Positions 898 to 32,344 of a DNA stretch of 43,138 nt are shown here, piece after piece (positions within the stretch are counted from its first letter, which is position 1; every line of letters starts with the position of its first letter). Made by a program: the position numbers and the translations under genes. The stretch lies in the UHGV virus genome UHGV-0213559; one strand, given 5' to 3'. The notes beneath the pieces are model-generated. The model was not told the DNA's origin. It saw only the letters and a program-made list of their open reading frames with translations, and searched no databases. The stretch comes from a virus.

Positions 898-1074
898 CGT
901 TTAACAGCCTGCCGGACGGGCTGTCCTACCTTCTCAATCCGGTTGACGCCGGGTTAATTCCTTATACAGCACTTAAAGATGGCTCTGTCGATTTGTACGA
1001 CATTGCTCTCTTGAATGACCATCTGGCGGTAAAAGCGGATAACCAGCGGCGCATTGAGAAATGGAGAGAGGATA

Positions 1075-3063
1075 ATGAACGCTGAAACTATTAAAGATTT
1101 CCTCGTCTCGCTTGGCTTCAGTGTGGATGATGCAGGAGCGAAAAAGTTCGGTTCTGTCCTCGCCGGTACAACTGCAAATGTCATCAAAATGGGACTGGCC
1201 GTTGAAGGAGCTGCGCTGTCAGTGGTGGCCTTCACGGCTAAGATCGCCTCCGGCCTGGATAATCTTTACTGGGCGTCACAGCGCACCGGCGCGACAATCC
1301 AGGGAATTCAGTCTATTGGCTATGCGGTTTCGCAGGTTGGCGGCAGCGTGGACGCTGCGCGATCTTCTCTGGAAAGCCTCTCCCGGTTTATTCGTAACAA
1401 TCTCGGTGCAGAAGGCTTTCTGAATCGCCTGGGCGTACAGACCCGTGATGCCAGCGGTAACATGCGTGACATGGCCGCTATCTTTACGGGCGTTGGACAG
1501 AAACTCAGCAGCATGCCGTATTACCGGGCTAACCAGTATGCGCAGATGCTGGGCATTGACGAAAATACCCTTATGGCGATGCGCCGGGGTGTGGGTGGCT
1601 TCTCCGGGCAGTACAGCGCAATGGCGAAAGCTATCGGCTTCAATGCTGACGAGGCGGCCAGAAGCTCCAACAAATTTATGACCTCCCTGCGTGAGTTTGG
1701 CGCGATGGCAGGCATGGCCCGTGACAAAATCGGCTCTAATCTTGCGGGGGGGCTTGCGGGTTCGCTGGACACCCTGCGCCGCCATATCCTGGACAACTTC
1801 CCTCGTATCGAGCAGACCCTGACGAAAGCCATAAAAGGCATTCTGGCGCTCGGGGATATTATCGGGCGGCTGTTCTTCAGACTGATTGAGGGGACATCAG
1901 GCCTTATCACCTGGTGGCAATCGCTGGATAAGCAAACGCGGGAGTTGATCTCGCTGTTTGGCGCACTGACGATTGCGCTGCGCATTCTGAACAGTACGTT
2001 CTGGATGTCGCCGGTTGGCCTCATTACCGCGCTGGCGGCGGGGATTGCCCTCCTGTGGGAGGACTATCAGACCTGGAAGGAAGGCGGCGACAGCCTGATT
2101 GACTGGGGCAAGTGGAAACCGGAGGTCGATGCCGCGCTGAAGATGGTTCGTGACCTTAAAACGACCGTTAACGATCTGGCGAAAGCGCTGGCGAAACTGC
2201 TCAATATTGACCCCAAATCATGGTCCCTGAAGTGGGATTTCAGCAACTTCATCGACCAGATGGGCGAATTCAGCAAAATGCTGAACATGATCGCCGACCT
2301 GCTCAACGCTATCAAAGATGGACGCTGGGCTGATGCCGTCAGCATCGGCAAACAGATACTTAATCAGGGCAGCGAAAATCCGTCAGCGATGCCGATGGTT
2401 ACAGACAGCGCTAACAGTACTGCCGACTGGATTAAAGAGCACTGGGGATTCGATCCCCGCAGTGTGGGCCGGACGGTACGCGGCTGGTTTGGTGATGATG
2501 AGCCGGAACAACATGCACAGGCTACGAAACGAGGAGAGCGGAATAACAATCCGGGAAACCTTAATTTTGCTGGTCAGGCAGGGGCTTCTCTTGAACACCC
2601 GGGCGGGCGATTTGCCAGATTTGAAACTGCCTTTGATGGATTACGGGCTCTTGCTCGTCAGTTAATGTTGTACGCCGGGCGAGGAATAAACAGTGTGGAA
2701 AAAATTATCTCTACCTGGGCACCTGCCTCTGATAATAACAACACAACTGCGTATATCAGGGCTGTATCGCAACGACTGGGAGTGGATCCCCGGGCAGCCC
2801 TGAATATGAGCGATCCGAAAACCATGTCAGCATTGATGAGCAGCATTATCCAGCATGAAAATGGAAGAAATATCTATTCCCGAGAGCTGATTAATAAGGC
2901 TGCCGTGGCGGGAATTAGTGGCAAAATGACAGAGGTTAACCAGCAAAATACCTACCACATTTACGGTGGCGGAGATCCGCACGCTGTCGGTAATGAGGTT
3001 GCACGTCAGCAACAGTCTGCAAATGCTCAGGTCATGCGAAGTAATCAGGTGAGGGTGGGTTAG
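1075..3063 (+). CDS. tail tape measure protein
   Basis: 662 aa from ATG 1075 with GGAGAGAGG SD (ORF track starts at TTG 1054); long, Ala/Gly-rich, helical-looking with a central hydrophobic segment; canonical position after the chaperone. Confidence 0.7.
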   Translation: MNAETIKDFLVSLGFSVDDAGAKKFGSVLAGTTANVIKMGLAVEGAALSVVAFTAKIASGLDNLYWASQRTGATIQGIQSIGYAVSQVGGSVDAARSSLESLSRFIRNNLGAEGFLNRLGVQTRDASGNMRDMAAIFTGVGQKLSSMPYYRANQYAQMLGIDENTLMAMRRGVGGFSGQYSAMAKAIGFNADEAARSSNKFMTSLREFGAMAGMARDKIGSNLAGGLAGSLDTLRRHILDNFPRIEQTLTKAIKGILALGDIIGRLFFRLIEGTSGLITWWQSLDKQTRELISLFGALTIALRILNSTFWMSPVGLITALAAGIALLWEDYQTWKEGGDSLIDWGKWKPEVDAALKMVRDLKTTVNDLAKALAKLLNIDPKSWSLKWDFSNFIDQMGEFSKMLNMIADLLNAIKDGRWADAVSIGKQILNQGSENPSAMPMVTDSANSTADWIKEHWGFDPRSVGRTVRGWFGDDEPEQHAQATKRGERNNNPGNLNFAGQAGASLEHPGGRFARFETAFDGLRALARQLMLYAGRGINSVEKIISTWAPASDNNNTTAYIRAVSQRLGVDPRAALNMSDPKTMSALMSSIIQHENGRNIYSRELINKAAVAGISGKMTEVNQQNTYHIYGGGDPHAVGNEVARQQQSANAQVMRSNQVRVG

Positions 3064-3650
3064 TGGATATTCTCTCTACACTTTTTCATCAGCAGAGCAG
3101 AAAAATAGGAATGATTGTTCCCAGTGTTGTTATTTCAGAGAAGCATACAGATATGCTTGAAATAACCGAGCATCCGGTAGAGGTCGGGGCTGCTGTCGCT
3201 GATCATGCCTATAAAAAACCGTCAGAAGTGGTGATGGAGGTTGGTTTCGCCGGTGGCGGCACATTGCTGGATTTTGCCAGTAACCTGACGGCTACCAGCC
3301 TGCTCGGCCTGAGTCCTCAGCAGACGTATCAGGAGCTACTGGATCTGCAGGAAAGCCGTATCCCCTTCGATGTGGTAACCGGTAAACGGCTGTACAGCAA
3401 CATGTTGATCCGGGCGCTGGAAGTGACGACGGACAAGACAACCGAAAATGTCCTGTCCGCCGTCCTTACCCTGAGGGAGGTCCTTATCTCCCGGACACAG
3501 CAGATTACCGTCGCGGATAAAACCAACATGAAGGAAGGGGCCAGCACGTCGGCGGTACAGAATAGCGGCAACAAAACCACAAAGCCTCCAGATACTTCAC
3601 TGCTGAAAAGCATTACGGGTAACGTGGCGTCATTACTGGGAGGCGGCTAA
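3063..3650 (+). CDS. tail/baseplate-associated protein, function unknown
   Basis: 195-aa ORF with GTG start overlapping the tape-measure stop; sits between tape measure and baseplate hub. Confidence 0.35.
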   Translation: MDILSTLFHQQSRKIGMIVPSVVISEKHTDMLEITEHPVEVGAAVADHAYKKPSEVVMEVGFAGGGTLLDFASNLTATSLLGLSPQQTYQELLDLQESRIPFDVVTGKRLYSNMLIRALEVTTDKTTENVLSAVLTLREVLISRTQQITVADKTNMKEGASTSAVQNSGNKTTKPPDTSLLKSITGNVASLLGGG

Positions 3651-3952
3651 TGACAATTCAGGAAATTCCGCTGACAGCGGACAACCAGCAGTTCAGCATC
3701 GTCCTGGGCGGTGTTACCTGGCGGATTAGCATCATATGGCGCGATCTGTACTGGATTATGGACCTGCAGAATGACAGAGGGGAGCCGGTAATCTCCGGTA
3801 TTCCTCTCGTCACTGGCGCTGATCTGCTGGCGCAGTACGCCTGTATGGGGCTTGGTTTTAAGCTGTTGGTGGTCTGCGATGACAACACACAGGATTATCC
3901 CACGAAAACTGACCTGGGCGGTCGCAGTCATTTACTGGTATCAACGGAGTAA
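3650..3952 (+). CDS. hypothetical tail protein
   Basis: 100-aa ORF whose ATG overlaps the preceding stop (translational coupling) in the tail module. Confidence 0.35.
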   Translation: MTIQEIPLTADNQQFSIVLGGVTWRISIIWRDLYWIMDLQNDRGEPVISGIPLVTGADLLAQYACMGLGFKLLVVCDDNTQDYPTKTDLGGRSHLLVSTE

Positions 3953-3954
3953 GC

Positions 3955-5022
3955 ATGTCACAGAACTGGATGAGACATTTCGAGCTGCAGCTTGTGGACG
4001 GGAACGGTCAGGGAATTGAGCTAAGTGATTTCAAAGTCACCTTTACGATCGACTGGTTCAACATCAGCAGCGCGTCCCGGGTAGGGACTATCAAAATTTA
4101 TAACCTCTCGGCAGATACTGTGAACCGAATTACCGGGCAGGAGTTTTCGAAAGTGCGTCTGATTGCGGGTTACGACGGTATCGCGCCGGAGGTGTCGGCA
4201 AGCGACGTCGGGACAGTGCGGGAAGTTGACGCGGCGGACGTGGGCCAGAGTGATGGTCGCAACTACGGACTGATTTTCAGCGGTGAAATTCGCTACTCGG
4301 TCACAGGAAAAGACAGTCCGGTTGATTCCTACGTCCTGATTCAGGCAGCAGATACTGATCTGGCTTTTGCCACCAGTATAACCTCACAGACGCTGGCTGC
4401 CGGTTACACGGTCGCTGATGTGAACCGTGCGCTGATGAAAGACTTCGAAGCCAAAGGTGCGACCGAAGGCCTGACGCCTGAAATGCCTGCTACTGTATTC
4501 CCCCGGGGGCGGGTGCTCTTTGGCATGACGCGGCATCTAATGGATAACGTAGCCGGGCAATGTGGCGCAACATGGCAATTCGTGGACGGTCAGCGCCAGA
4601 TGGTGGCGACTAATGAATATGTTCACGAAGCGATTGTGCTCAACAGTGCTACCGGGCTTATTGGCATGCCGCAGCAGACCATCGGCAACGGCGTAAACGT
4701 CCGCGCGCTTATTAATCCGAACATCCGGGTTAACGGGCTCATTCAGCTGGATCAGGCTTCCGTCTATCGTACCGCGTTGTCGAACAACGATATTGCGATG
4801 GCTGGTGGTCAGATCACCGACCAGAACACGGACGGAAATATCACGCTCAGCGGCACCACATCGCAGCCTGCCAGCATCGCAACGGATGGCGTTTATATTG
4901 TGCGCGGGATTATGTACACTGGTGACACAAGGGGCCAGGCGTGGTACATGGACATGATGTGCGAAGCGCGTGGCGCGGCGGATTTACTTTCGTCCTCAGC
5001 GCAGCAAAGGTTTTATTCATGA
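3955..5022 (+). CDS. baseplate hub-like tail protein (Mu gp44 / P2 gpD-like position)
   Basis: 355-aa ORF in the hub position of the tail gene order; assignment by synteny and size only. Confidence 0.45.
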   Translation: MSQNWMRHFELQLVDGNGQGIELSDFKVTFTIDWFNISSASRVGTIKIYNLSADTVNRITGQEFSKVRLIAGYDGIAPEVSASDVGTVREVDAADVGQSDGRNYGLIFSGEIRYSVTGKDSPVDSYVLIQAADTDLAFATSITSQTLAAGYTVADVNRALMKDFEAKGATEGLTPEMPATVFPRGRVLFGMTRHLMDNVAGQCGATWQFVDGQRQMVATNEYVHEAIVLNSATGLIGMPQQTIGNGVNVRALINPNIRVNGLIQLDQASVYRTALSNNDIAMAGGQITDQNTDGNITLSGTTSQPASIATDGVYIVRGIMYTGDTRGQAWYMDMMCEARGAADLLSSSAQQRFYS

Positions 5023-5366
5023 AGCGTATGAAGTTAGTTCTGACAATTTCGTTACTGTTTTCCTGCTCATCGGCTTTCGCTGATTTGCAATGCGGGGGAT
5101 ACCGACTTCATGCATCTGATAACGGGTGGACGAAAATCAACGGCGAACAGGTAACATCTCAGAAAATTAAGTTTCTTGGTCAGAAAGATGACTGGGACAA
5201 CGTTAAAACCGACATGGGCCTGATGCCTTCCCGCGATGGCAACAATTACGGCTTTGAGTTTGTGAAGCGTAACGGAAAAGCTTTTCTGAACGTCCAGCTT
5301 CTGCAGAACAGCATGGATGCGCCTAGAATCATCGGATCATTCCCTTGTAAAAAGGCGTTACGCTAA
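5019..5366 (+). CDS. secreted or lipoprotein cargo protein (signal peptide)
   Basis: in-frame ATG at 5019 overlapping the upstream stop (ATGA); N-terminus MKRMKLVLTISLLFSCSSAFA is a typical signal peptide with a possible lipobox Cys; AT-rich by eye. Confidence 0.5.
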   Translation: MKRMKLVLTISLLFSCSSAFADLQCGGYRLHASDNGWTKINGEQVTSQKIKFLGQKDDWDNVKTDMGLMPSRDGNNYGFEFVKRNGKAFLNVQLLQNSMDAPRIIGSFPCKKALR

Positions 5367-5461
5367 AGTTTGATGTCAATCTTCCGAGATGAGCGCTTTA
5401 AGGTTGACGAGATATTGTTCAAAGTTCACAATCACAATCCCTTTAGTAAGAGAAATAATCC

Positions 5462-6235
5462 ATGGCGGCAGGCATCCCACTAGAAAAAGCGCAAAAATAT
5501 GTTGAACAATTCAATGCGCTTCTATTGGATAGGGAAAGATTAGATCCCTTCACTGAAAAGAAAATTCGAGAGGAACTTTCTGTTTCTCCAACGCCTGCTA
5601 CCAACATTGCACTATCTTATCTGGATGCAATAACCGGAAAGATTGAAAGCGCGTTACGTTATCTCAGGATAAGCCTGGAAGTAAACGATGTAACGTTGGC
5701 AATGCACTATCATCACATTTTAATTAATACATTTAGCTATAATGAACTCAAGGATGTCTATGTCCCGCTGGCAAAGAAGTATCGGACAAAACTTTTTAGT
5801 CACAACGCATACAGTTGGGCGTACCGTTGCGGTGAGCGTGAACAGTTAGAATTTTATATGGAAGAGCACATTAAGCTTCTTTCTGAATCAGAAGGCAGGA
5901 GTAATGCTATGAAGCACAAAGAAGAACTCCTTGCAGAAATGGATAATTTCTATAGCGCCACACAGTGCTCGAAGGAACAGTTTCAGACCTTAGCATCCAT
6001 AATCTGGGGCTTGCTAAGTGAATACAAGGCTACGACAGGTTTCGTTCAGCTTAGTGGAAGCGGTTGCTATGTTGTTGATATTAAAAATCTTGAGCCTAAA
6101 ACTATTGCCAAAATGAATTTCGATTTGGCTGATAGAGTCTGTGCTGAATCTAAACTGGATGATTGTTCCCTGTTAGCTAGATTTACCTCTCCGCGTCAGT
6201 TGCATACGGGGGTGAGCTACCATGTCGGTAACTAG
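5462..6235 (+). CDS. hypothetical protein, cargo gene A (257 aa)
   Basis: ORF-track ORF; AT-richer than flanking tail genes by eye; 3' end overlaps the next ORF by 14 nt. Confidence 0.5.
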   Translation: MAAGIPLEKAQKYVEQFNALLLDRERLDPFTEKKIREELSVSPTPATNIALSYLDAITGKIESALRYLRISLEVNDVTLAMHYHHILINTFSYNELKDVYVPLAKKYRTKLFSHNAYSWAYRCGEREQLEFYMEEHIKLLSESEGRSNAMKHKEELLAEMDNFYSATQCSKEQFQTLASIIWGLLSEYKATTGFVQLSGSGCYVVDIKNLEPKTIAKMNFDLADRVCAESKLDDCSLLARFTSPRQLHTGVSYHVGN

Positions 6236-6617
6236 CAATCAGATTCTCGATACCGCTCGATTATGTCTGTCTGAAAATATTGAGAGTGGATTTCGAAGCG
6301 CTATCTCAAGGGCGTATTACAGTATGTTACATGAGTCTATTAGCTCACTTACTGCCATACCGCATTTTACCCATGAGCATCACAAAAATACTGTGGGTTA
6401 TATGTCAACGCCATCAGAGTGCAAATCAGAGCCATACCCGACAAATACACTGAAATCCCTGGCTTTCGTACTTCGCCAGTGGCGGGATGCTAGAAACGAA
6501 GCTGACTATGATCTGACGAATGTGACTGTTTCGAAAGAGATGGGACAGGATGCAATCGAGGCTGCTGAACTCTATTTTGAGCGCTGGGAACAGCTAAAGT
6601 CTGCTAGGGCTTCATGA
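6222..6617 (+). CDS. hypothetical protein, cargo gene B (131 aa), possible HEPN-like motifs
   Basis: overlaps gene A (coupling); contains RAYYSMLH (R-x6-H) and RNEADY stretches reminiscent of HEPN R-x4-6-H motifs; followed by a strong intrinsic terminator. Confidence 0.45.
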   Translation: MSVTSNQILDTARLCLSENIESGFRSAISRAYYSMLHESISSLTAIPHFTHEHHKNTVGYMSTPSECKSEPYPTNTLKSLAFVLRQWRDARNEADYDLTNVTVSKEMGQDAIEAAELYFERWEQLKSARAS

Positions 6618-6634
6618 ATAAAATTAACGTTATC

Positions 6635-6659
6635 AAACCCGCTTCGGCGGGTTTTTTGC
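6635..6659 (+). terminator. rho-independent terminator
   Basis: AAACCCGC-TTCG-GCGGGTTTTTT hairpin plus T-tract immediately after the cargo pair. Confidence 0.7.
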
Positions 6660-6676
6660 TTTCTGGAGCCTACTAA

Positions 6677-7429
6677 ATGGCAGTATCTGACGAGACCCGC
6701 AGCGGCGATCTTGCCGAAACATTCAAATCTGAACGGGAAACAACAAAGAACCAGATCCGTGTCGCCCTGCCTGGCATTATTCAGTCATTCGATCCTGATG
6801 CGGTGACGGCAGTTGTGCTGCCTGCTATCCGTTCGGTTGAAAAGGATAATGACGGCAAGCGCATTACCAAAAATTACCCATTGCTGGTGGATGTGCCAGT
6901 GGTATTCCCGCGTGGCGGAGGCTGTACGTTGACTTTTCCGGTAAAAGCTGGGGATGAGTGTCTTGTCGTTTTTGCCGATCGTTGTATTGATTTCTGGTGG
7001 CAGAGCGGCGGGATACAGGAGCCGGTTGATGACAGAATGCATGATTTATCGGATGCGTTTTGTATTGTCGGTCCCCAGTCGCAGGCGAGGAAGATTAGCG
7101 GTATTAATACCAGTGCCACACAGTTGCGTAGTGACGACGGCAGCACCTATTTTGAGCTTAATCCTGATACCAGGAAAATTAAAATTGTCGCTCCGGGGGG
7201 GCTTGATGTGGTTGCCCCCCTGGCTGATTTTTCTGAGAAAGTAACCATTCATGGCCTGTTAACCTGGATGGGTGGCATGGTGGGGTCTGTTGTTTCTGGT
7301 GTGGCTTCAAAAATCACTGGTGCTGTTGAGTTCTTGGGGAGCGTGAAGGCTAACGGCAAGCCAATCGATGATACGCACACTCATGGTGGTGTTCAGCGCG
7401 GTGGAAGCAATACCGACGGAGTAAACTGA
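6677..7429 (+). CDS. baseplate spike / assembly protein (gpV / Mu gp45-like)
   Basis: 250-aa ORF after the hub in a V-W-J-I gene order; assignment by order and size. Confidence 0.5.
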   Translation: MAVSDETRSGDLAETFKSERETTKNQIRVALPGIIQSFDPDAVTAVVLPAIRSVEKDNDGKRITKNYPLLVDVPVVFPRGGGCTLTFPVKAGDECLVVFADRCIDFWWQSGGIQEPVDDRMHDLSDAFCIVGPQSQARKISGINTSATQLRSDDGSTYFELNPDTRKIKIVAPGGLDVVAPLADFSEKVTIHGLLTWMGGMVGSVVSGVASKITGAVEFLGSVKANGKPIDDTHTHGGVQRGGSNTDGVN

Positions 7430-7782
7430 TGCGATACAGACGTGAAGACGCCGATGGCGATTACACCTTTGGCAGCGGTGATGACACCTGGCTAATTAAC
7501 TCACCGGAGGCCGTGGCACAGGCGGTAAAAACGCGATTCGAATTGTGGTATGGGCAATGGTTTCTCGACACCACCGAGGGGACTCCGTGGATCCAGTCCG
7601 TACTCGGTAAGCAGAAGCCGGAAACCTACAACCTGGCGATCCGTAAGCGCATCCTCGAAACGCGGGGCGTTAAATCAATCCTCTCTTTCAATACGACGGT
7701 GGATACCACGACCCGACGTGTCAGGTTTTCCGCTGAAATCGACACTCTTTATGGAATAACGACTGTTACATCGGAGGCGTAA
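7429..7782 (+). CDS. baseplate wedge protein (gpW / gp25-like)
   Basis: 117-aa ORF coupled to the preceding gene; position and size match W-like proteins. Confidence 0.5.
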   Translation: MRYRREDADGDYTFGSGDDTWLINSPEAVAQAVKTRFELWYGQWFLDTTEGTPWIQSVLGKQKPETYNLAIRKRILETRGVKSILSFNTTVDTTTRRVRFSAEIDTLYGITTVTSEA

Positions 7783-8981
7783 TGGCTCTGAACCTTGATT
7801 CTCTCGGTTTATCTGCAAAGGTAACCGCGGAGGGGATCAGTGCGCCTGATTATCAGACGATACTCAGCACCCTGATTAGCTATTTTCAGCAGATTTATGG
7901 TAGTGATGCCTACCTCGAACCGGACAGTAAAGACGGTCAGATGGTGGCTCTGATGGCGCTGGCGATTCATGATGCCAATAATACGGCGATAACTGTCTAC
8001 AACTGTTTTTCACCGGCAACCGGCTATGGGGCTGCACTGACCAGTAACGTGAAAATAAATGGTATTTCACGTAAAGGCGCGACGAACTCTACGGTTGATT
8101 TGCTTCTTACAGGAACTGCCGGAACAACCATCATTAATGGCAGCGTGAAAGACAGTAATAATGTGATATGGCGTTTGCCTGCTTCAGTGGTGGTCGGCGT
8201 GGATGGTACAGTGATGGTGACCGCAAAATGTTCCGTCAGTGGTGCAGTGGCGGCGCTGGCTGGAACTATCACTGAAATTAATACGCCAACCCGTGGCTGG
8301 GTTTCGGTAACCAATCCTGCTGCAGCTACTGTAGGCACTCCAGCAGAAACTGATGCGGAGTTACGTATCCGCCAGTCGCAAAGTGTTGCGTTGCCATCAA
8401 TAACCCCATTTGAAGCACTGGATGGTGCTGTTTCTAATGTTACCGGTGTAACCCGCCACAAACTCTATGAAAACGATACTGGTTCGGAGGATGGTAACGG
8501 GTTACCGCCACACTCTGTTGCTGTAATTGTGGATGGCGGTGATGTGACGGATATTGCTCAGGCTATCAGAGGGAATAAAGGCCAGGGGACAGCCACTCAC
8601 GGTACAACATCCGTTACGGTTCCGGATAAATACGGCAATCCCCATGTAATCAAATTCTCGCGTTCCAGTGATGTGCCTGTTTATGCCCGGATTAAATTAA
8701 AAGTTTTTACGGGTTATACCTCACAGATAGGGCAGCAGATCCAGCAGGCTATTTCCGACTATATCAATAGTCTGATGATTGGTGATTCGGTCCTTTTAAG
8801 TCGCATTTACTCACCGGCGAATCTTGGCGTGGTGAGTGGCGGAAATGCACGCTATTACGATATTCAGGAACTGACGATTGGTAAATCCCCGGGGGCTTTG
8901 TCGTCATCAAACATTGATATCAGATATAACGAATATGCGTCCTGTGCCCCGGAAAATATCGTTATAACGGTGGAGTCATGA
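7782..8981 (+). CDS. baseplate J-like protein
   Basis: 399-aa ORF in the J position; ATG overlaps the preceding stop. Confidence 0.55.
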   Translation: MALNLDSLGLSAKVTAEGISAPDYQTILSTLISYFQQIYGSDAYLEPDSKDGQMVALMALAIHDANNTAITVYNCFSPATGYGAALTSNVKINGISRKGATNSTVDLLLTGTAGTTIINGSVKDSNNVIWRLPASVVVGVDGTVMVTAKCSVSGAVAALAGTITEINTPTRGWVSVTNPAAATVGTPAETDAELRIRQSQSVALPSITPFEALDGAVSNVTGVTRHKLYENDTGSEDGNGLPPHSVAVIVDGGDVTDIAQAIRGNKGQGTATHGTTSVTVPDKYGNPHVIKFSRSSDVPVYARIKLKVFTGYTSQIGQQIQQAISDYINSLMIGDSVLLSRIYSPANLGVVSGGNARYYDIQELTIGKSPGALSSSNIDIRYNEYASCAPENIVITVES

Positions 8982-9658
8982 GCAAATACACCGAACTAAT
9001 CACGAACTATCACGCCACCAAACCTAAATTTCTTGCACATGCTGATCTGATGACCAGGCCGCTTATTGATGTTGCGGCTGCCACCAGAGGGCTGATTACT
9101 GCATTTGATATTGACTCCGCGGTTGGTGTGCAACTTGACATTCTTGGATTGTGGATCGGACGTAGCCGTGTTGTCAGCCAGCCTATCTCAAGTGTCTATT
9201 TCAGCTGGGATACCGACGGGCTTGGGTATGATCAGGGTGTATGGCAGGGGCCATACGATCCTGATTCAGGATACATGTATCTCAGCGATGAAACTTATCG
9301 TGTCATTCTTAAAGCGAAGATTGCGATTAATAACTGGGACGGACGGAATGATTCGCTTCCGGCAATCCTTGACGCTGCAACAGCAGGATCCGGACTGCGA
9401 ATGCAGATTGTCGATAACCAGGACATGACGATATCGGTCTGGGTCTTTCCTGATACAGATATTTCAGATGTATCGCGTGAGTTAATTGCGGCAATTAAAC
9501 AGGGGTATCTCACAGTAAAAGCCGCCGGGGTATGGGCGGGTGGCATTGAAACACCTTCGGTTGAAACCCCATCGGAAGGTTCAAAATTTTTTGGTTTTGA
9601 TATGGATAACGAATTTATCAGTGGTTTTGATGTAGGGGCATGGGGAGTATTACTCTGA
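8978..9658 (+). CDS. tail protein I-like (baseplate)
   Basis: 226-aa ORF overlapping the J-like stop, upstream of the tail fibre. Confidence 0.45.
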
Positions 9659-10734
9659 TGACAAAAAATGACTTTAAAGCATTCGCAACGGGTAAAAATG
9701 CCAATGTTATGTCGCAGGAGGAATGGGAAGCGTTGCCTGCGCTTTTATCCGGATTTACAGCAGGGAAAGCATCCAGTGCGCAAGTCAATAAGGTTATTCG
9801 GCAGGCCAGCTTTATTGCATCTGCAATAGCACAATATACAGCAAATGAAAGTGGACTGGATGTACAGGATGATGGCGATCAGGCCGGCTTTATCGCAAAA
9901 ATGTCGTCTGCATTAGATAAGAACTATCAGAGAATTAATGCCATACTTACCGCACTTGCTAATCTTTCAGCATCCGAAAACAAATTACCGTATTTTACCA
10001 ATCAAGATACCGCTAATTTGGCTGACCTGACACAGGTTGGGCGAGATATTTTGGCAAAAAGCTCTGTTGCTGATGTCCTTAAATATCTTGGTCTGGAAGA
10101 TAATTCGACCTTTCCTGTAGGTGCCCCGATCCCGTGGCCATCAGATACAGTTCCATCTGGTTATACTCTGATGCAGGGACAGACTTTTGACAAGTCTGCA
10201 TACCCGAAACTTGCAGCCGCTTATCCGTCAGGCGTGATCCCTGATATGCGTGGCTGGACGATTAAGGGCAAGCCCGCCAGTGGTCGTACCGTATTGTCTC
10301 AGGAACAGGACGGCATTAAATCGCACACCCACAGCGCCAGCGTATCCAGTACGGATTTGGGTACGAAAACCACATCGTCGTTTGATTACGGGACGAAAAC
10401 CACCTCACTATTTGACTATGGGACCAAAACTACCAGTAACGCCGGGAGTCACACGCATTCAATACCAACATCAGATGGTGCAAACCAGGGGGGGAAAATT
10501 CCACTGACATCTGGGCGTCTGGCAACTCAATATACATCAGCAACAACAGGTTCCTCTGGCTCACATTCTCATACTGTAGGTATTGGTTCTCATCAGCACA
10601 CTGTCGGTATTGGTGCACACACGCACTCCATTGCGATTGGCTCACATGGACACACCATCACCGTTAACGCTGCTGGTAACGCGGAAAACACCGTCAAAAA
10701 CATCGCATTTAACTATATTGTGAGGCTTGCATAA
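9658..10734 (+). CDS. tail fibre protein
   Basis: ATG at 9658 overlaps the preceding TGA (ORF track starts 9640 in frame); C-terminal half has tandem GTKTTS and SH-x-H-T[VI]-[GA]-IG repeats typical of fibre tips. Confidence 0.65.
10350..10665 (+). repeat. tandem coding repeats in the tail-fibre tip (3 x DYGTKTTS-like, 4 x H-x-H units)
   Basis: near-identical nucleotide units of about 30 nt (gggacgaaaaccac...) and about 27 nt (ggtattggt..ca.ca.cac) visible directly. Confidence 0.6.
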
Positions 10735-11312
10735 TGGCATTCAGAATGAGTGAACAATCACGAACCATCAAAATTTATAATCTGCTGGCCGGAACTAATG
10801 AATTTATTGGTGACAGTGACGCATATATTCCACCTCATACAGGTCTACCTGCAAACAGTACCGATATTGCACCGCCAGATATTCCGGCTGGCTTCGTGGC
10901 TGTTTTCAACACTGATGAGGCATCGTGGCATCTCGTTGAAGACCATCGGGGTAAAACCGTCTATGATGTGGCTTCCGGCGACGCGTTATTTATTTCTGAA
11001 CTTGGCCCATTACCGGAAAATGTCACCTGGTTATCCCCGGAAGGGGAGTTTCAGAAGTGGAACGGTACATCCTGGGTGAAAGATGCAGAAGCAGAAAAAC
11101 TGTTTCGGAACCAGGAGGCGGAAGAAACAAAAAACAGCCTGATGCAGGTAGCTAGCGAGCATATTGCGCCACTTCAGGATGCTGTAGATTTGGATATTGC
11201 GACGGAAGAAGAGGCATCGTTACTGGCTGCATGGAAGACATATCGGGTATTGTTGAATCGTGTTGATACAACAGTAGCAGCGGATATTGAGTGGCCAGTC
11301 GCCCCACAATAA
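10734..11312 (+). CDS. tail fibre assembly protein (Tfa / gpG-like)
   Basis: 192-aa ORF with ATG overlapping the fibre stop (TAATG); composition typical of lambdoid/P2 Tfa chaperones. Confidence 0.65.
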
Positions 11313-29773: not shown

Positions 29774-30196
29774 ATGCGTAATATTCAACAGGTTTTAGAG
29801 CGCTGGGGTGGCTGGGCAGCGAGTGAAGGTGGTAGCGTCTACTTTCCTCCTGTTGCAGCCGGGTTTAAGAATCTGCTACCCGCGACGCAGTCTGGCAGGC
29901 TGAAATGCAGTGACAATGACGGTCTTATCATCAACTCCGCTATGAGCTGCCTGAAGAAAAAAGATCCGTATCTGTGCACGCTCCTTGAGTGGCATTACGT
30001 CCAGGCCATGCCCGTGCGGGCGATGGGTGAGAAGCTCGGCGTATCTCACACCCACATTCTGAAGAGGCTTCAGGCGGCAGAGGGATTTATTGACGGTTGC
30101 TTAGCCATGCTGGATGTGGTGCTCGAAATGGATCAGTCGGTTCAGTCAAAGCCTCAGGCTATCAGGACTTTGCGTAGGAGCTGCTCGGCGGCATAA
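29774..30196 (+). CDS. Q: Q-like late antiterminator
   Basis: N-terminus MRNIQQVLERWGGWAA... resembles lambdoid Q proteins of the phage 21 / 933W type (from memory); positioned upstream of the lysis cassette. Confidence 0.65.
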   Translation: MRNIQQVLERWGGWAASEGGSVYFPPVAAGFKNLLPATQSGRLKCSDNDGLIINSAMSCLKKKDPYLCTLLEWHYVQAMPVRAMGEKLGVSHTHILKRLQAAEGFIDGCLAMLDVVLEMDQSVQSKPQAIRTLRRSCSAA

Positions 30197-30227
30197 TATC
30201 CAGCAATCAATCACGTAAGGGAACCAG

Positions 30228-30569
30228 ATGGCTCTGATCAGCGTTCGCAACAGATTTGAAAGCTTCATGGAACAGAGGTACCCAGACCTGTCGTTGCAGG
30301 TCAAAGGTAATATTGGCGCATCAATGAAGGCTCAACTTGGCATCAGGATTGAACGAGAATTGTACAGTGAAGATGTTACTTACTGTGATTCAGCAGTTCA
30401 GTTGATGTGGACACTCTTTCAGGCAGGTGTTCTGGCCGAACGAAGAGCTACCAGCGTTACGCTTCCTGCGCTGAAGGCAAAGCCGGATAGCTTCTACGAT
30501 GCGGGTTATAACGAAGGTATTCAGGACTGTCGTAAACATCTGACGGCATCAGGCATCAAGGTAAGATAA
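30228..30569 (+). CDS. hypothetical protein (113 aa) between Q and the late terminators
   Basis: ORF-track ORF; no recognisable motif. Confidence 0.4.
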   Translation: MALISVRNRFESFMEQRYPDLSLQVKGNIGASMKAQLGIRIERELYSEDVTYCDSAVQLMWTLFQAGVLAERRATSVTLPALKAKPDSFYDAGYNEGIQDCRKHLTASGIKVR

Positions 30570-30636
30570 AAAATAGTTGTGGAATTCCAAAAAGCCGATT
30601 AGCCTGATATCTGTTGAAAACAGTTCATCACGAAGA

Positions 30637-30660
30637 GGCTCCCGCAAGGGGGCCTTTTTT
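30637..30660 (+). terminator. intrinsic terminator with GNRA tetraloop
   Basis: GGCTCCC-GCAA-GGGGGCC hairpin followed by TTTTTT. Confidence 0.65.
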
Positions 30661-30890
30661 AATGCTCTATTCTCAGTAAAAGTTAATAAAACAGGGTTTT
30701 CGTCGCGAAAAAACGCTATGCAGTTTTTGCCCTTTTTTATGCACCTTTTATTCACTCGAATTTCGTCATTCTGGACCACTTAAGTTGATTAAATAGGCCT
30801 TTCATCGCAAATCTATTGCGAGCGGTGATCGTGTGGTTCCTATAACGTACATTATGTTAAATAACCTCCTTTTTTAACAAATTTAACAAG

Positions 30891-30913
30891 GTTCGCTATG
30901 GCGAACTTTTTTT
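30891..30913 (+). terminator. intrinsic terminator (candidate tR')
   Basis: GTTCGC-TATG-GCGAAC hairpin followed by TTTTTTT, about 100 nt upstream of the holin. Confidence 0.6.
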
Positions 30914-31014
30914 GTATTCAGGGCCCACCGAAGGACGGCTCATAACCCAATCCTACGGGCGTATACGCAGGGCCCGCCTTTCAACAACACCCCGTAATGG
31001 CGGAGGTGGGAAGT

Positions 31015-31356
31015 ATGAAAATGCACAATGCTCCTCATTCCTGGCCTGACTTACTGGAACTCTTACAAAGTTGGTGGCGTGGAGATACGCCGTTGGGCGC
31101 AGTGGTTATGTCAATTGTTATGGCTGGTTTGCGCATTGCCTATTTTGGCGGTGGCGGCGGCTGGAAACGAAAAACGCTTGAGATTTTGCTCTGTGGTGCT
31201 CTGACGCTGACCTTTGCATCCGCTCTTGAGTATGTTGGATGGCCTAAATCGCTTTCTGTTGCCATTGGTGGTGGTGTTGGGCTGATCGGTGTCGATGCTA
31301 TTCGTGGGGCTGCAATGCGAGTAATCGGTAACAAGTTTGGTGGCTCTAAGGAGTAA
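31015..31356 (+). CDS. S: holin with dual-start motif (Met-Lys-Met)
   Basis: GGAGGTGGG SD 8 nt before ATG 31015; MKM start like lambda S107/S105; hydrophobic helices; ORF track starts further upstream at 30997. Confidence 0.6.
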   Translation: MKMHNAPHSWPDLLELLQSWWRGDTPLGAVVMSIVMAGLRIAYFGGGGGWKRKTLEILLCGALTLTFASALEYVGWPKSLSVAIGGGVGLIGVDAIRGAAMRVIGNKFGGSKE

Positions 31357-31359
31357 TTC

Positions 31360-31836
31360 ATGCAGACACTAAATTCCCAACGTAAAGCTTTCCTGGATAT
31401 GGTGGCATGGTCAGAAGGAACGGATAACGGGCGACAACCAACACGTAATCACGGTTATGACGTTATCGTCGGAGGTGAGTTGTTCACTGATTACTCCGAT
31501 CACCCTCGCAAACTTGTCACGCTAAACCCGAAGCTTAAATCAACAGCTGCAGGCCGGTATCAGCTTCTTTCACGCTGGTGGGATGCCTACCGCAAGCAGC
31601 TTGGCCTGAAAGATTTTTCGCCAGAAAGTCAGGACGCTGTGGCGCTGCAGCAGATTAAAGAGCGTGGCGCTTTACCGATGATTGACCGTGGCGATATTCG
31701 TCAGGCAATCGACCGTTGCAGCAATATCTGGGCGTCGTTACCTGGTGCAGGTTACGGTCAGTATGAACATAAAATCGGTGACCTGATTTCCAGGTTTAAA
31801 GATGCTGGTGGGGTGGTAAATGAAGCTGACTTATAA
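31360..31836 (+). CDS. R: endolysin, lambda R-type lytic transglycosylase
   Basis: long stretches match lambda R as recalled (QRKAFLDM.AWSEGTDNGRQ.TRNHGYDVIVGGELFTDYSDHPRKLVTLNPKLKST.AGRYQLLSRWWDAYRKQLGLKDFSP). Confidence 0.85.
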   Translation: MQTLNSQRKAFLDMVAWSEGTDNGRQPTRNHGYDVIVGGELFTDYSDHPRKLVTLNPKLKSTAAGRYQLLSRWWDAYRKQLGLKDFSPESQDAVALQQIKERGALPMIDRGDIRQAIDRCSNIWASLPGAGYGQYEHKIGDLISRFKDAGGVVNEADL

Positions 31837-32344
31837 GATTGTCATCGCGGCATTTTTCTTCTCTGCCCTTGGGGCGCTCGTCTGGTCTGCAAACCATTAC
31901 CACAGCAAGTATCAGGCAGAAAAGTTGCGGGCTGATAAAGCGGAAGGTGAAGCTGAATATCAAGGGCAAGTGATAGCTAATCAGGCATTAAACTTCAATC
32001 GTTTTAACCAGATAGCAGAAAACGCAAGCCGATTAAATTCTCTGGTCGACATCGGTCACGAGAAGACAGTCATCAAATACCGTGAGGTTCTGCTCCGTGA
32101 AAAGAACTGTGATTTCCCTGTTCCTGCTGATATTGCTGTCGGGTTGCTCAACTACGCGAACCGTTTACGCGCCAGCACATTGCACGCCGATTCCGGGGAC
32201 ATTGACTCAGCCAGTGATCGTGCCACTACCACCAGAACGTTGACATATTGCCAGGCTGTTCTGTGGATTAACCCACTGTTGGCAGCCATCGAGAAGGCGA
32301 ATAACCAGTTGGCTGGTGTCCGACAAATAGAACAGTCCCGGTAA
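31820..32344 (+). CDS. Rz: i-spanin (Rz-like)
   Basis: N-terminal transmembrane helix (IVIAAFFFSALGALVWSANHY) then charged coiled-coil-like region; overlaps the endolysin 3' end. Confidence 0.6.
   Translation: MKLTYKIVIAAFFFSALGALVWSANHYHSKYQAEKLRADKAEGEAEYQGQVIANQALNFNRFNQIAENASRLNSLVDIGHEKTVIKYREVLLREKNCDFPVPADIAVGLLNYANRLRASTLHADSGDIDSASDRATTTRTLTYCQAVLWINPLLAAIEKANNQLAGVRQIEQSR
32097..32243 (+). CDS. Rz1: o-spanin (Rz1-like lipoprotein) embedded in the +1 frame of Rz
   Basis: hand translation MKRTVISLFLLILLSGCSTTRTVYAPAHCTPIPGTLTQPVIVPLPPER; GAGG SD 8 nt upstream of a GTG start; lipobox LSGC; Pro-rich tail. Confidence 0.5.
   Translation: MKRTVISLFLLILLSGCSTTRTVYAPAHCTPIPGTLTQPVIVPLPPER

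Follow-up and report, generated by a model that had tools for sequence, protein, structure and literature searches.

Phages are known to encode exported proteins within their tail operons, for example Lom, gp15, Cor and Llp, and the genes of such proteins are usually sporadic morons, while to our knowledge little has been described of the periplasmic behaviour of contractile-tailed temperate phages. Spackle of phage T4 is a small periplasmic, disulfide-bonded protein that blocks the tail lysozyme gp5; it works from within the periplasm of an infected cell, where it counters the tails of incoming phages (PMC7677548). HK97 gp15 is the product of an exclusion gene that lies inside the tail operon, and morons in the sense of Hendrix and Juhala carry their own promoter and terminator, which allow them to be expressed from a repressed prophage (PMC3594210). 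The Cor proteins of phi80 and N15 and the Llp protein of T5 are likewise phage proteins of the envelope, and their genes are linked to those for the tail or for receptor binding (PMC9586334, PMC3594210).

Here we describe orf115, a gene in the virus genome UHGV-0213559; the whole stretch of 43,138 nucleotides that was analysed is referred to as the window, and its relevant features are collected in Table 1. orf115 belongs to the backbone of SEN34-like temperate myovirus tail modules, in which it lies between the genes for the baseplate hub and the central spike.

Table 1. Coordinates in the window of orf115, the parts of its product and the neighbouring tail genes.
Feature	Position	Strand	Evidence
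orf115 CDS, 115-aa exported protein (predicted), PHROG 3443 family	5019..5366	+	translation, PHROG 3443 match, homolog clusters, dN/dS, PGAP call
Translational coupling region: AAAGG Shine-Dalgarno-like motif and ATGA overlap	5006..5022	+	sequence; hub-to-homolog gap in relatives
Sec signal peptide, residues 1-21 (MKRMK n-region, LVLTISLLF h-region, ..AFA c-region)	5019..5081	+	hydropathy, alignment A1, homolog counts
Mature periplasmic domain (predicted), residues 22-115, 8-stranded up-and-down beta-barrel	5082..5363	+	AF2 model, invariant columns
Baseplate hub gene, 355 aa, fixed upstream neighbour of orf115	3955..5022	+	phrog_196 'baseplate hub' E 3e-88; weak PF22759 match
Variable cargo island between orf115 and the spike gene	5354..6632	+	DNA homology break, promoter/terminator scan, GC
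Island ORF, 257 aa	5462-6235	+	
Island ORF, 131 aa	6222-6617	+	
Central spike gene, fixed downstream neighbour of the slot	6677..7429	+	PF18352 E 2e-43, Apex motif PF18946, synteny
Peptidoglycan-hydrolase-like domain in the tape measure protein (TMP), residues 491-623	2524..2922	+	phmmer vs PDB

The product of orf115 resembles Spackle in several respects. Spackle, a small phage protein, is directed to the periplasm by a signal that is cleaved off, and it contains one disulfide (PMC7677548); the orf115 protein is likewise predicted to be cleaved and may form a disulfide. Moreover, the phage studied here delivers a peptidoglycan-hydrolase-like domain in its TMP. However, Spackle is an alpha-helical bundle encoded by an early gene outside the tail operon, whereas the model of the orf115 protein is all-beta and its gene lies in the late tail operon, and a search of the family profile against PDB sequences returned only a chance-level match to an unrelated SH2-domain protein (E 1.3). 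HK97 gp15 offers a parallel in position: it too is small and targeted to the envelope, and its gene lies among the tail genes of a temperate phage of enterobacteria (PMC3594210). Yet gp15 is an inner-membrane protein, and its gene is a classical moron that brings its own promoter and terminator and shows presence/absence polymorphism, whereas the orf115 protein is predicted to be soluble and exported, is encoded in nearly all relatives and has no predicted expression signals of its own. Cor and Llp differ from the orf115 family in being receptor-specific outer-membrane lipoproteins; the family has no conserved lipobox and does not co-vary with the fibre tip. A purely positional analogy is found in PB1-like phages, where E217 gp42 and Pa193 gp43 occupy the same slot, flanked by the genes for hub and tail tip. 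Like orf115, the E217 gene overlaps the stop codon of its hub gene, but gp42 is a 177-aa protein with neither a signal peptide nor similarity to orf115, and it is nowhere mentioned in the E217 virion structure paper, while Pa193 gp43 is absent from the protein list of the Pa193 structural atlas.

orf115 is a genuine gene. The hub gene stops at TGA 5020-5022, and the ATG of orf115 (5019-5021) shares these letters as ATGA (5019-5022), as the original prediction had proposed; the Shine-Dalgarno-like motif lies at 5006-5010 within the hub gene, 8 nt 5' of the ATG. Translation of 5019..5366 gives a 115-aa product, MKRMKLVLTISLLFSCSSAFADLQCGG...CKKALR*, and RefSeq/PGAP calls the same ORF (WP_042108966.1) in E. 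coli TB06051, the DNA of which is 100% identical to the window over 3900-6700. In the mechanical ORF list the frame begins at GTG 4941, but homologs begin at the ATG or at the second Met (P0015). The gene is usually start/stop-coupled to the hub gene, with an extrapolated gap of 0 nt in most related loci. The same prediction had described orf115 as fused onto the end of the hub gene, and this did not hold: orf115 has an ORF of its own, in the -1 frame relative to the hub. A frameshift fusion was rejected, since both the spacing (-15 to +20 nt among relatives) and the relative frame vary, so that relatives share no fixed frame relation on which such a fusion could rest; no canonical slippery heptamer was seen by eye in the 4941-5022 overlap.

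The leader was judged by hydropathy and family alignment for a basic n-region, an h-region of 7-15 residues and small residues at -3/-1, and the orf115 protein has the features of proteins exported by Sec and processed by signal peptidase I. Three basic residues fall within positions 2-5 (K2, R3 and K5), the hydrophobic core spans residues 6-14 (Kyte-Doolittle 9-mer maximum 2.8), and A19-F-A21 precedes D22, before which the signal peptide is probably cut. Among 113 full-length homologs, a Sec leader is present in 111 and a small -3/-1 cleavage site in every one. The mature part has exactly two cysteines, as in 112 of the 113 homologs, and these residues, C25 and C110, are invariant in the family alignment and may form a disulfide. 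Thus, the signal peptide and the two mature cysteines anticipated from the sequence were confirmed with the true start, whereas the suggestion of a lipoprotein was not. A lipobox-like LLFSC (C16) does occur inside the leader, but it satisfies only a loose PROSITE-style pattern, because the F at -2 is atypical, and orthologs do not share a lipobox of the form [LVI][ASTVI][GAS]C closing the h-region. A lipobox-like Cys is present in just 7/113 homologs, whereas all have the AxA site ahead of the mature N-terminus, which argues for a family of periplasmic proteins and not of lipoproteins, although C16 may still be used in this one allele. In two relatives (P0134 and P0154), the orf115 domain forms the C-terminus of a lipoprotein, and P0134 is encoded in the same slot after the hub; the N-terminal domain of these fused relatives found nothing in Pfam and, in PHROGs, a weak 17-residue match to another unannotated family. 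Taken together, these features support export of the orf115 protein to the periplasm.

The mature domain of about 94 residues is predicted to form an 8-stranded beta-barrel closed by the invariant Cys pair, with C25 in the first strand of the AF2 model and C110 in the last. Mean pLDDT of the model is 83.4, with values of 80-94 per 10-residue block across the mature part. A Foldseek search of the model against BFVD and PDB returned nothing at E <= 0.001, and the fold matches are generic, pointing to a calycin-like barrel and to no specific structural relative. The protein matches the full-length PHROG 3443 profile (E 7.9e-55, residues 1-112 on profile positions 1-112 of 115), but PHROG 3443 carries no annotation and membership therefore says nothing about function. 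Searches of Pfam and NCBIfam gave no match, PADLOC-DB (known anti-phage defence) gave no family at E <= 0.1, and the protein did not match the profile, with its conserved loop motifs, of the MliC/PliC lysozyme inhibitors, which together with PhiA are known periplasmic inhibitors of lysozymes or peptidoglycan hydrolases; more broadly, profile and sequence searches found no homology to known exclusion or inhibitor families. Homology to tail structural domains, sought by profile, sequence and fold, was also not found, in agreement with the initial impression that orf115 has no obvious role in the tail. The literature on SEN34, the S. Typhi locus tags and periplasmic exclusion factors yielded nothing on orf115.

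Homologs form 401 protein clusters, all in Enterobacterales prophages, and an exhaustive profile search of 1.84 billion representatives returned only 64 matches, indicating that the family is narrow. Within this range the prophages that carry it are widespread, and their hosts include E. coli, Klebsiella, Salmonella, Yersinia and Photorhabdus. About 120 related loci, spread over many genera, have a homolog immediately 3' of the hub gene and ahead of the spike gene, and in some lineages the order is hub, orf115 and spike with nothing else in between. Between distant lineages, orf115 (70-76% identity) is more conserved than hub, spike or TMP. Strong purifying selection acts on the mature part (dN/dS 0.12, compared with 0.81 in the leader), a contrast that fits an exported protein; positive selection was rejected, as no pair of homologs has dN/dS > 1, and there is hence no arms-race signature. 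The slot is not invariably filled by orf115. In PSTCR3 the spike gene follows the hub gene directly, yong1 retains a 21-aa remnant with other genes in the slot, and in EKP1 two unrelated signal-peptide ORFs occupy it.

The original prediction took orf115 to be cargo, and here the map has to be corrected, since the exchangeable slot of the tail module begins at the 3' end of orf115. The DNA homology with relatives spans orf115, ends at 5353 and restarts at 6633/6645, and the distance from orf115 to the spike gene ranges from 29 to 2120 nt among loci. It is the downstream island, with its ORFs at 5462-6617, that is the swappable, moron-like cargo: the promoter/terminator scan placed promoter-like sites at 5404-5459 and a hairpin terminator at 6635-6654 just beyond its right edge, and its GC content is 37-45% compared with 55% in the hub gene. 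For orf115, a crude consensus scan gave no + strand promoter-like site ahead of 5019 and placed no terminator in the interval from 5366 to 5462, and the gene is not extra DNA that comes and goes among close relatives. Of the hallmarks of a moron it shows only a base composition unlike that of its flanking genes (GC 45.7%, compared with 54.7% in the hub gene and 51.0% in the spike gene). As no promoter or terminator of its own is predicted, expression of orf115 in a repressed prophage is doubtful.

Discrete orf115 alleles are exchanged within modules that are otherwise 97-100% identical, independently of the downstream cargo. The last ~10 codons of the hub gene travel with the allele, and the association is confined to hub alignment columns 355-365; because the signal collapses to those residues, the correlation between orf115 and hub reflects only linkage. 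A partner elsewhere in the tail module was sought by co-variation and rejected, with correlations to TMP, Dit, plug, spike, wedge and fibre of about 0 inside the close backbone. Alleles also do not track the type of the TMP peptidoglycan-hydrolase cassette (chi-square p 0.45), and a pairing with this cassette was rejected. Paralog arrays are present in two of the about 120 loci, one with eight copies (L025) and one with four (L036). Three of the four copies in L036 have a piece of the hub 3' end in front of them and so resemble orphan cassettes that were displaced, while the L025 array adjoins an IS element in a possibly decaying prophage; promoter and terminator scans of both arrays did no better than shuffles.

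What, then, might orf115 do? One possibility, which we put forward tentatively and rate as short of probable, is that its product is a periplasmic self-protection or exclusion factor, similar in function to Spackle. The protein would be made alongside the tail proteins, from a late operon through which the Q antiterminator carries transcription, and would be exported to the periplasm and oxidised there. By binding a conserved partner on the envelope side it may protect the infected or induced cell from the tails of incoming phages, and would thus either exclude superinfection or make the cell resistant to lysis from without, in both cases at a periplasmic step. The orf115 protein would then be a functional analogue of Spackle or gp15, to both of which it is unrelated in sequence and fold. 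The conserved leader and cleavage site, the invariant Cys pair and the lipoprotein-fused relatives are consistent with this role, as are the immunity-like swapping of alleles, the paralog arrays and the precedents of Spackle (PMC7677548) and gp15 (PMC3594210). A periplasmic target borne by the tail is also at hand: TMP residues 491-623 match PDB entries 7q47 ('Endolysin', E 1e-13) and 9vvp ('Gp29', E 2e-20) by phmmer, TMP of a relative (L128/L129) corresponds to Pfam SLT, and the domain, which is unrelated to the phage's own endolysin of the lambda-R type, is a conceivable target of an exclusion factor. Against this stand the generic fold matches and the lack of homology to known exclusion or inhibitor families, the alleles that are uncorrelated with any tail gene or with the hydrolase cassette, the missing arms-race signature and the rarity of the arrays; furthermore, exclusion that operates only late in the lytic cycle would be of less obvious benefit.

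An alternative, which we regard as rather unlikely, is that the barrel has as its ligand some conserved part of the host envelope, for example peptidoglycan, a lipoprotein, a periplasmic enzyme or a lipid, and tunes lysis timing, envelope breakdown or progeny release without excluding any phage. Coupling to a late tail gene, with no promoter of its own predicted, and the absence of co-variation with any phage tail gene fit such a role; the very strong purifying selection and a cross-genus conservation above that of structural genes fit an invariant host target, and calycin-like barrels are typical of ligand binders. However, a complete lysis cassette (holin, lambda-R endolysin and Rz-like protein) is located elsewhere, relatives such as PSTCR3 and yong1 manage without the gene, and the multi-copy arrays and allele swapping would be left unexplained. 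It is less probable still that orf115 is a lysogenic-conversion factor, the role that the original prediction had named beside superinfection exclusion; its product would then be a secreted protein, expressed from the prophage, that alters host fitness, virulence or stress resistance. Although the leader and cleavage site, the low GC content, the IS element beside the L025 array and the tail-region precedents of lambda Lom and HK97 gp15 (PMC3594210) are compatible with it, the gene lacks predicted signals of its own, is found in essentially all relatives with homology running through it, and has a true moron cassette just downstream, and hosts as unlike in lifestyle as Photorhabdus, Pantoea, Yersinia, Klebsiella and E. 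coli all retain this protein.

Two further explanations we consider very improbable. In one, orf115 would mask the phage's own outer-membrane receptor from the periplasmic side in the manner of Cor or Llp, preventing superinfection and the loss of progeny on debris. An envelope-located protein encoded in a tail module, together with the T5 Llp precedent (PMC9586334), would suit this, but orf115 identity does not correlate with that of the fibre's C-terminal part, which binds the receptor (r = 0.02 over all loci and 0.00 in the close backbone), one allele is found with very different fibres, and the family is not lipoprotein-anchored. In the other, at similarly long odds, orf115 would be a tail assembly or structural factor, a small protein or chaperone associated with hub or spike, the hydrophobic N-terminus of which is not a secretion signal. 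The fixed hub-spike position, the translational coupling and the gene that PB1-like phages carry in the same slot point this way. The conserved cleavage-site pattern and Cys pair, the lipoprotein-fused relatives and the arrays of 4-8 copies do not, and E217 gp42 is leaderless and not homologous; moreover, the related tail of PSTCR3 does without orf115 and EKP1 has unrelated secreted ORFs in its place, which favours exclusion over a structural role.

To return to periplasmic exclusion, a bolder version of this reading can be envisaged, in which orf115 is the founding member of a new family of exclusion proteins that fold as beta-barrels in the periplasm, hard-wired in the hub/spike block throughout a clade of temperate enterobacterial myoviruses, exchanged and occasionally stacked like immunity genes, and neutralising periplasmic tail penetration by way of the TMP hydrolase or channel or of a conserved host entry factor. 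We think this doubtful on the comparisons made here.

Unlike the usual sporadic morons, orf115 is kept at one position in widespread prophages, and this fixed position, together with conservation above that of the tail structural proteins in distant lineages, suggests a function that is important to the phage itself and is exerted in the periplasm. If that function is exclusion or self-protection, induced or lysogenic cells would be guarded from lysis from without and from superinfection by a counterpart of Spackle with an unrelated fold. Such a factor may affect the susceptibility of clinical Enterobacterales to related phages, and its barrel would provide a new small binder scaffold.

The gene that follows the baseplate hub gene in the window, orf115, opens at an ATG (5019-5021) that overlaps the hub stop codon TGA (5020-5022) in an ATGA arrangement, with an AAAGG motif 8 nt 5' of the ATG. 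Its translation gives 115 residues (MKRMKLVLTISLLFSCSSAFADLQCGG...FPCKKALR), and the same ORF is listed in RefSeq as a hypothetical protein of E. coli TB06051, a strain whose sequence matches window positions 3900-6700 at 100% identity. The start and length given in the original prediction are thus confirmed; its description of orf115 as fused onto the hub gene is not, since these are separate genes that overlap by four bases. The leader has three basic residues within positions 2-5, a hydrophobic core at residues 6-14 (Kyte-Doolittle 9-mer maximum of 2.8) and AFA directly before D22, and the mature part contains two cysteines, C25 and C110.

Searches of Pfam, NCBIfam and PADLOC returned no match to orf115, and the protein matched PHROG 3443, a family that lacks a functional annotation, over its full length (E 8e-55). 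Homologs formed 401 clusters in a search of 5.8 billion, and all those with names were designated hypothetical or 'secreted protein'; the hosts include E. coli, Klebsiella, Salmonella, Enterobacter, Citrobacter, Yersinia, Serratia, Photorhabdus, Pantoea and others. The family is compact, as a profile search run exhaustively against 1.84 billion representatives gave only 64 matches. An alignment of 27 diverse members revealed a freely variable leader, an A-x-A type site followed by an invariant C-G, and invariance of both C25 and C110. Among 113 full-length homologs, a basic n-region and hydrophobic core are present in 111, small residues at -3 and -1 shortly before the first conserved cysteine in all, and exactly two cysteines from the cleavage-site region onward in 112, which bears out the signal peptide and the two mature cysteines noticed originally. 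Since a lipobox-like leader cysteine occurs in only 7 of the 113, the LLFSC of the window protein is probably an incidental, allele-specific feature. Thus, where a secreted protein or a lipoprotein had been proposed, the first part stands and the second does not: the family does not belong among the lipoproteins, and its predicted export features are those of a Sec/SPase-I exported periplasmic protein. In two relatives (P0134 and P0154) the orf115 domain forms the C-terminus of a lipoprotein of ~290 aa, and the gene encoding P0134 also lies directly 3' of the hub gene.

By codon analysis of 90 unique homologous CDSs, dN/dS is 0.81 in the leader, 0.17 in mature residues 22-64 and only 0.05 in residues 65-113, and nowhere in the mature protein did a homolog pair have a value greater than 1. 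These values point to a real and strongly constrained protein. An AlphaFold2 model built from the alignment (mean pLDDT of 83.4; 80-94 per 10-residue block in the mature part) consists of a leader helix followed by eight beta-strands, and it places the conserved cysteines in the first and last strands, consistent with a C25-C110 disulfide that would close the barrel.

The window is a SEN34-type prophage in which lambdoid regulation and lysis genes, among them a Q antiterminator (29774-30196) and an S-type holin, are joined to a contractile tail. SEN34 itself has lambda-like genes and myovirus morphology (PMC5261728).

Features of the window, with the PB1-like gene E217 gp42 for comparison
Feature	Coordinates	Remarks
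Tube	1-441	
Chaperone	445-897	
Tape measure protein (TMP)	1054-3063	
Dit-like protein	3063-3650	
Pam3-gp18-like plug	3650-3952	
Hub	3955-5022	
orf115	5019-5366	
Island ORF, 257 aa	5462-6235	phrog_17809
Island ORF, 131 aa	6222-6617	phrog_5176; overlaps the 257-aa ORF
Central spike	6677-7429	
Wedge genes	7429-9658	
Fibre and fibre assembly protein	9640-11312	
Lambdoid late-control and lysis block	29774-32344	Q antiterminator, S-type holin, lambda R-type endolysin, Rz-like ORF
E217 gp42 (Pseudomonas phage E217)	L131 12595-13128	between hub gp41 and tail tip gp43; overlaps hub stop

All tail genes were located in related loci, 42 of them in species-representative genomes and 80 in IMG/VR, and in phage records. 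An orf115 homolog lies immediately 3' of the hub gene wherever the latter is present, with an extrapolated gap of -15 to +20 nt that is mostly 0, corresponding to the ATGA arrangement; two loci with a truncated hub gene, and a few in which the hub gene is absent or cut off by the contig end, depart from this. Between the homolog and the spike gene lie 29 to 2120 nt, and loci L037-L042 have the plain order hub, orf115, spike, with wedge genes too divergent for detection. Of 21 phage records with a hub at least 47% identical, 18 have a homolog, directly after the hub gene in 17 of them; in the 106-kb record P12620-1 the hub and orf115 matches are ~39 kb apart. The three records that lack a homolog are two of the same Hafnia phage, yong1, and one of 'Elizabethkingia' phage EKP1. 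The slot in yong1 holds a different, non-secreted ORF of 136 aa that ends in a 21-residue remnant of the orf115 C-terminus (71% identical; L045 4023-4085), which indicates that an ancestral orf115 was replaced. The EKP1 slot holds two unrelated small ORFs (L047 3532-3774 and 3799-4122), both with signal-peptide-like N-termini, suggesting that this slot generally accommodates exported proteins. In Providencia phage PSTCR3, with a hub only 38% identical, the spike gene directly follows the hub gene. EKP1 and a contig labelled Chryseobacterium sp. 18061 (L012), whose hub shares 93% identity with the E. coli hub, are Flavobacteriia-assigned records with an Enterobacterales-type tail module, and their labels may reflect contamination or host misassignment.

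In relatives, DNA homology to the window runs from the hub gene through orf115, ends at 5353, 13 nt before the orf115 stop codon, and resumes at 6633 or 6645, just upstream of the spike gene. The exchangeable island in between has a GC content of 37-45% (55% in the hub gene), given as 42-45% for 5354-6654. Promoter-like hexamers occur within it at 5404-5459, and a strong hairpin terminator lies just past it, at 6635-6654. Neither island ORF matched Pfam or PADLOC, and the shorter one is without PGAP annotation in E. coli TB06051; to the eye, its product looks somewhat HEPN-like (AYYSMLHE..., RNEADY). Morons are described as having their own promoter and terminator and deviant GC content and as occurring in some relatives only (PMC3594210), a description that fits the island. 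The GC content of orf115 (45.7%) is also below that of the hub gene, and orf115 does not belong among the morons. Since it has no predicted promoter or terminator of its own and is present nearly everywhere among the relatives, orf115 is part of the backbone, and the cargo slot thus starts at its 3' end. The proposal that orf115 itself is cargo was not upheld, given this lack of signals, the fixed place after the hub gene and the homology that extends to 5353.

A close set of 40 loci, defined by a hub identity of 93% or more to the hub of vB_EcoM-606R2 (itself 98% identical to the window hub), contains three orf115 alleles with mature parts 73-89% identical and differences concentrated in residues ~27-64. 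The downstream cargo of the window is also found with a 70% allele (L085) and a 94% allele (L054), and three loci (L101, L107 and L112) have a 68-69% allele in modules 97-100% identical on both sides. In the close set, orf115 pairwise identity did not correlate with that of the tube, chaperone, TMP, Dit, plug, spike, wedge or fibre (|r| < 0.1), and correlated only with that of the hub (r = 0.52). The hub columns responsible are the last ~10 residues only, and the correlation therefore reflects linkage to a recombination breakpoint. When every locus was included, orf115 identity and that of the last 150 residues of the fibre had a correlation of 0.02. In Yersinia and Photorhabdus, orf115 is the best conserved gene of the module, at 70-76% identity to the window protein versus 48-63% for hub, spike and TMP.

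Two genomes contain orf115 arrays. Serratia aquatilis has about eight tandem paralogs 3' of the hub gene (L025 3458-8336), most with intact leaders, and a gene for an IS256-like transposase (6325-7533, minus strand) interrupts the array. The ~4 kb of sequence that this locus comprises downstream of the array start contained no spike gene. Pseudescherichia vulneris NBRC 102420 (L036 1-2900) has a full hub gene and paralog followed by three units, each a ~68-aa hub C-terminal fragment plus a paralog, one of the latter truncated. This arrangement resembles the displaced 'orphan' cassettes of toxin/immunity loci, and by that analogy may have arisen from successive recombination events anchored at the conserved 3' end of the hub gene.

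TMP residues 491-623 (2524-2922) are similar to Gp29 of 9vvp and to a PDB entry deposited under the name endolysin (7q47, E 1e-13), and in one relative (L128/L129) the TMP matches Pfam SLT. The tail is therefore predicted to deliver an enzyme to the periplasmic side by way of a PG-hydrolase-like TMP cassette, for which L003 1493-1914 is listed alongside the window segment. The window endolysin, which is of nearly the same type as lambda R (1am7, E 2e-95), is unrelated to this domain. About half of the related, otherwise similar TMPs lack the window-type domain, and if the SLT match in L128/L129 has the same position, hydrolase domains are swapped within TMP.

orf115 has export signals, a constrained barrel domain and a set position within the late tail operon, and its alleles assort independently. 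Its protein would be made together with tails, exported and then oxidised, and may bind some conserved partner on the periplasmic side. T4 Spackle is a small, exported, disulfide-bonded phage protein that blocks the tail lysozyme and confers exclusion as well as resistance to lysis from without (PMC7677548). By analogy, a Spackle-like or gp15-like protective role is the most likely function of orf115, and we propose it tentatively: across related loci the alleles are independent of the TMP hydrolase cassette type, about half of the TMPs lack the window-type domain, positive selection has left no sign, and no predicted promoter would serve expression in the lysogen.

An alternative possibility is that orf115 acts on the envelope as a helper in the lytic cycle, through binding of a conserved host component; this would fit its conservation and late coupling but leaves the arrays unaccounted for, and we consider it rather unlikely. 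The lack of moron features makes lysogenic conversion, as suggested originally, more doubtful still. Masking of the receptor is highly improbable, as orf115 has neither an association with the fibre tip nor a lipid anchor, and there is equally little to recommend a structural or assembly factor, a role contradicted by the export features, the arrays and the dispensability of orf115 in relatives.

A gene between hub and tail tip is likewise present in PB1-like phages, namely E217 gp42 and, by published numbering, Pa193 gp43; the former is nowhere mentioned in the published E217 virion structure paper, and the latter is absent from the Pa193 structural atlas. Unlike orf115, E217 gp42 has no signal peptide, and the two share no similarity. 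Phage-encoded envelope proteins within tail operons are a known kind (Lom, gp15, Cor, Llp and Spackle), although the orf115 family is homologous to none of these and does not belong to MliC/PliC. What is unusual in orf115 is that a gene with a fixed position and high conservation in the hub-spike block throughout a whole clade also undergoes allele exchange and occasionally forms arrays.
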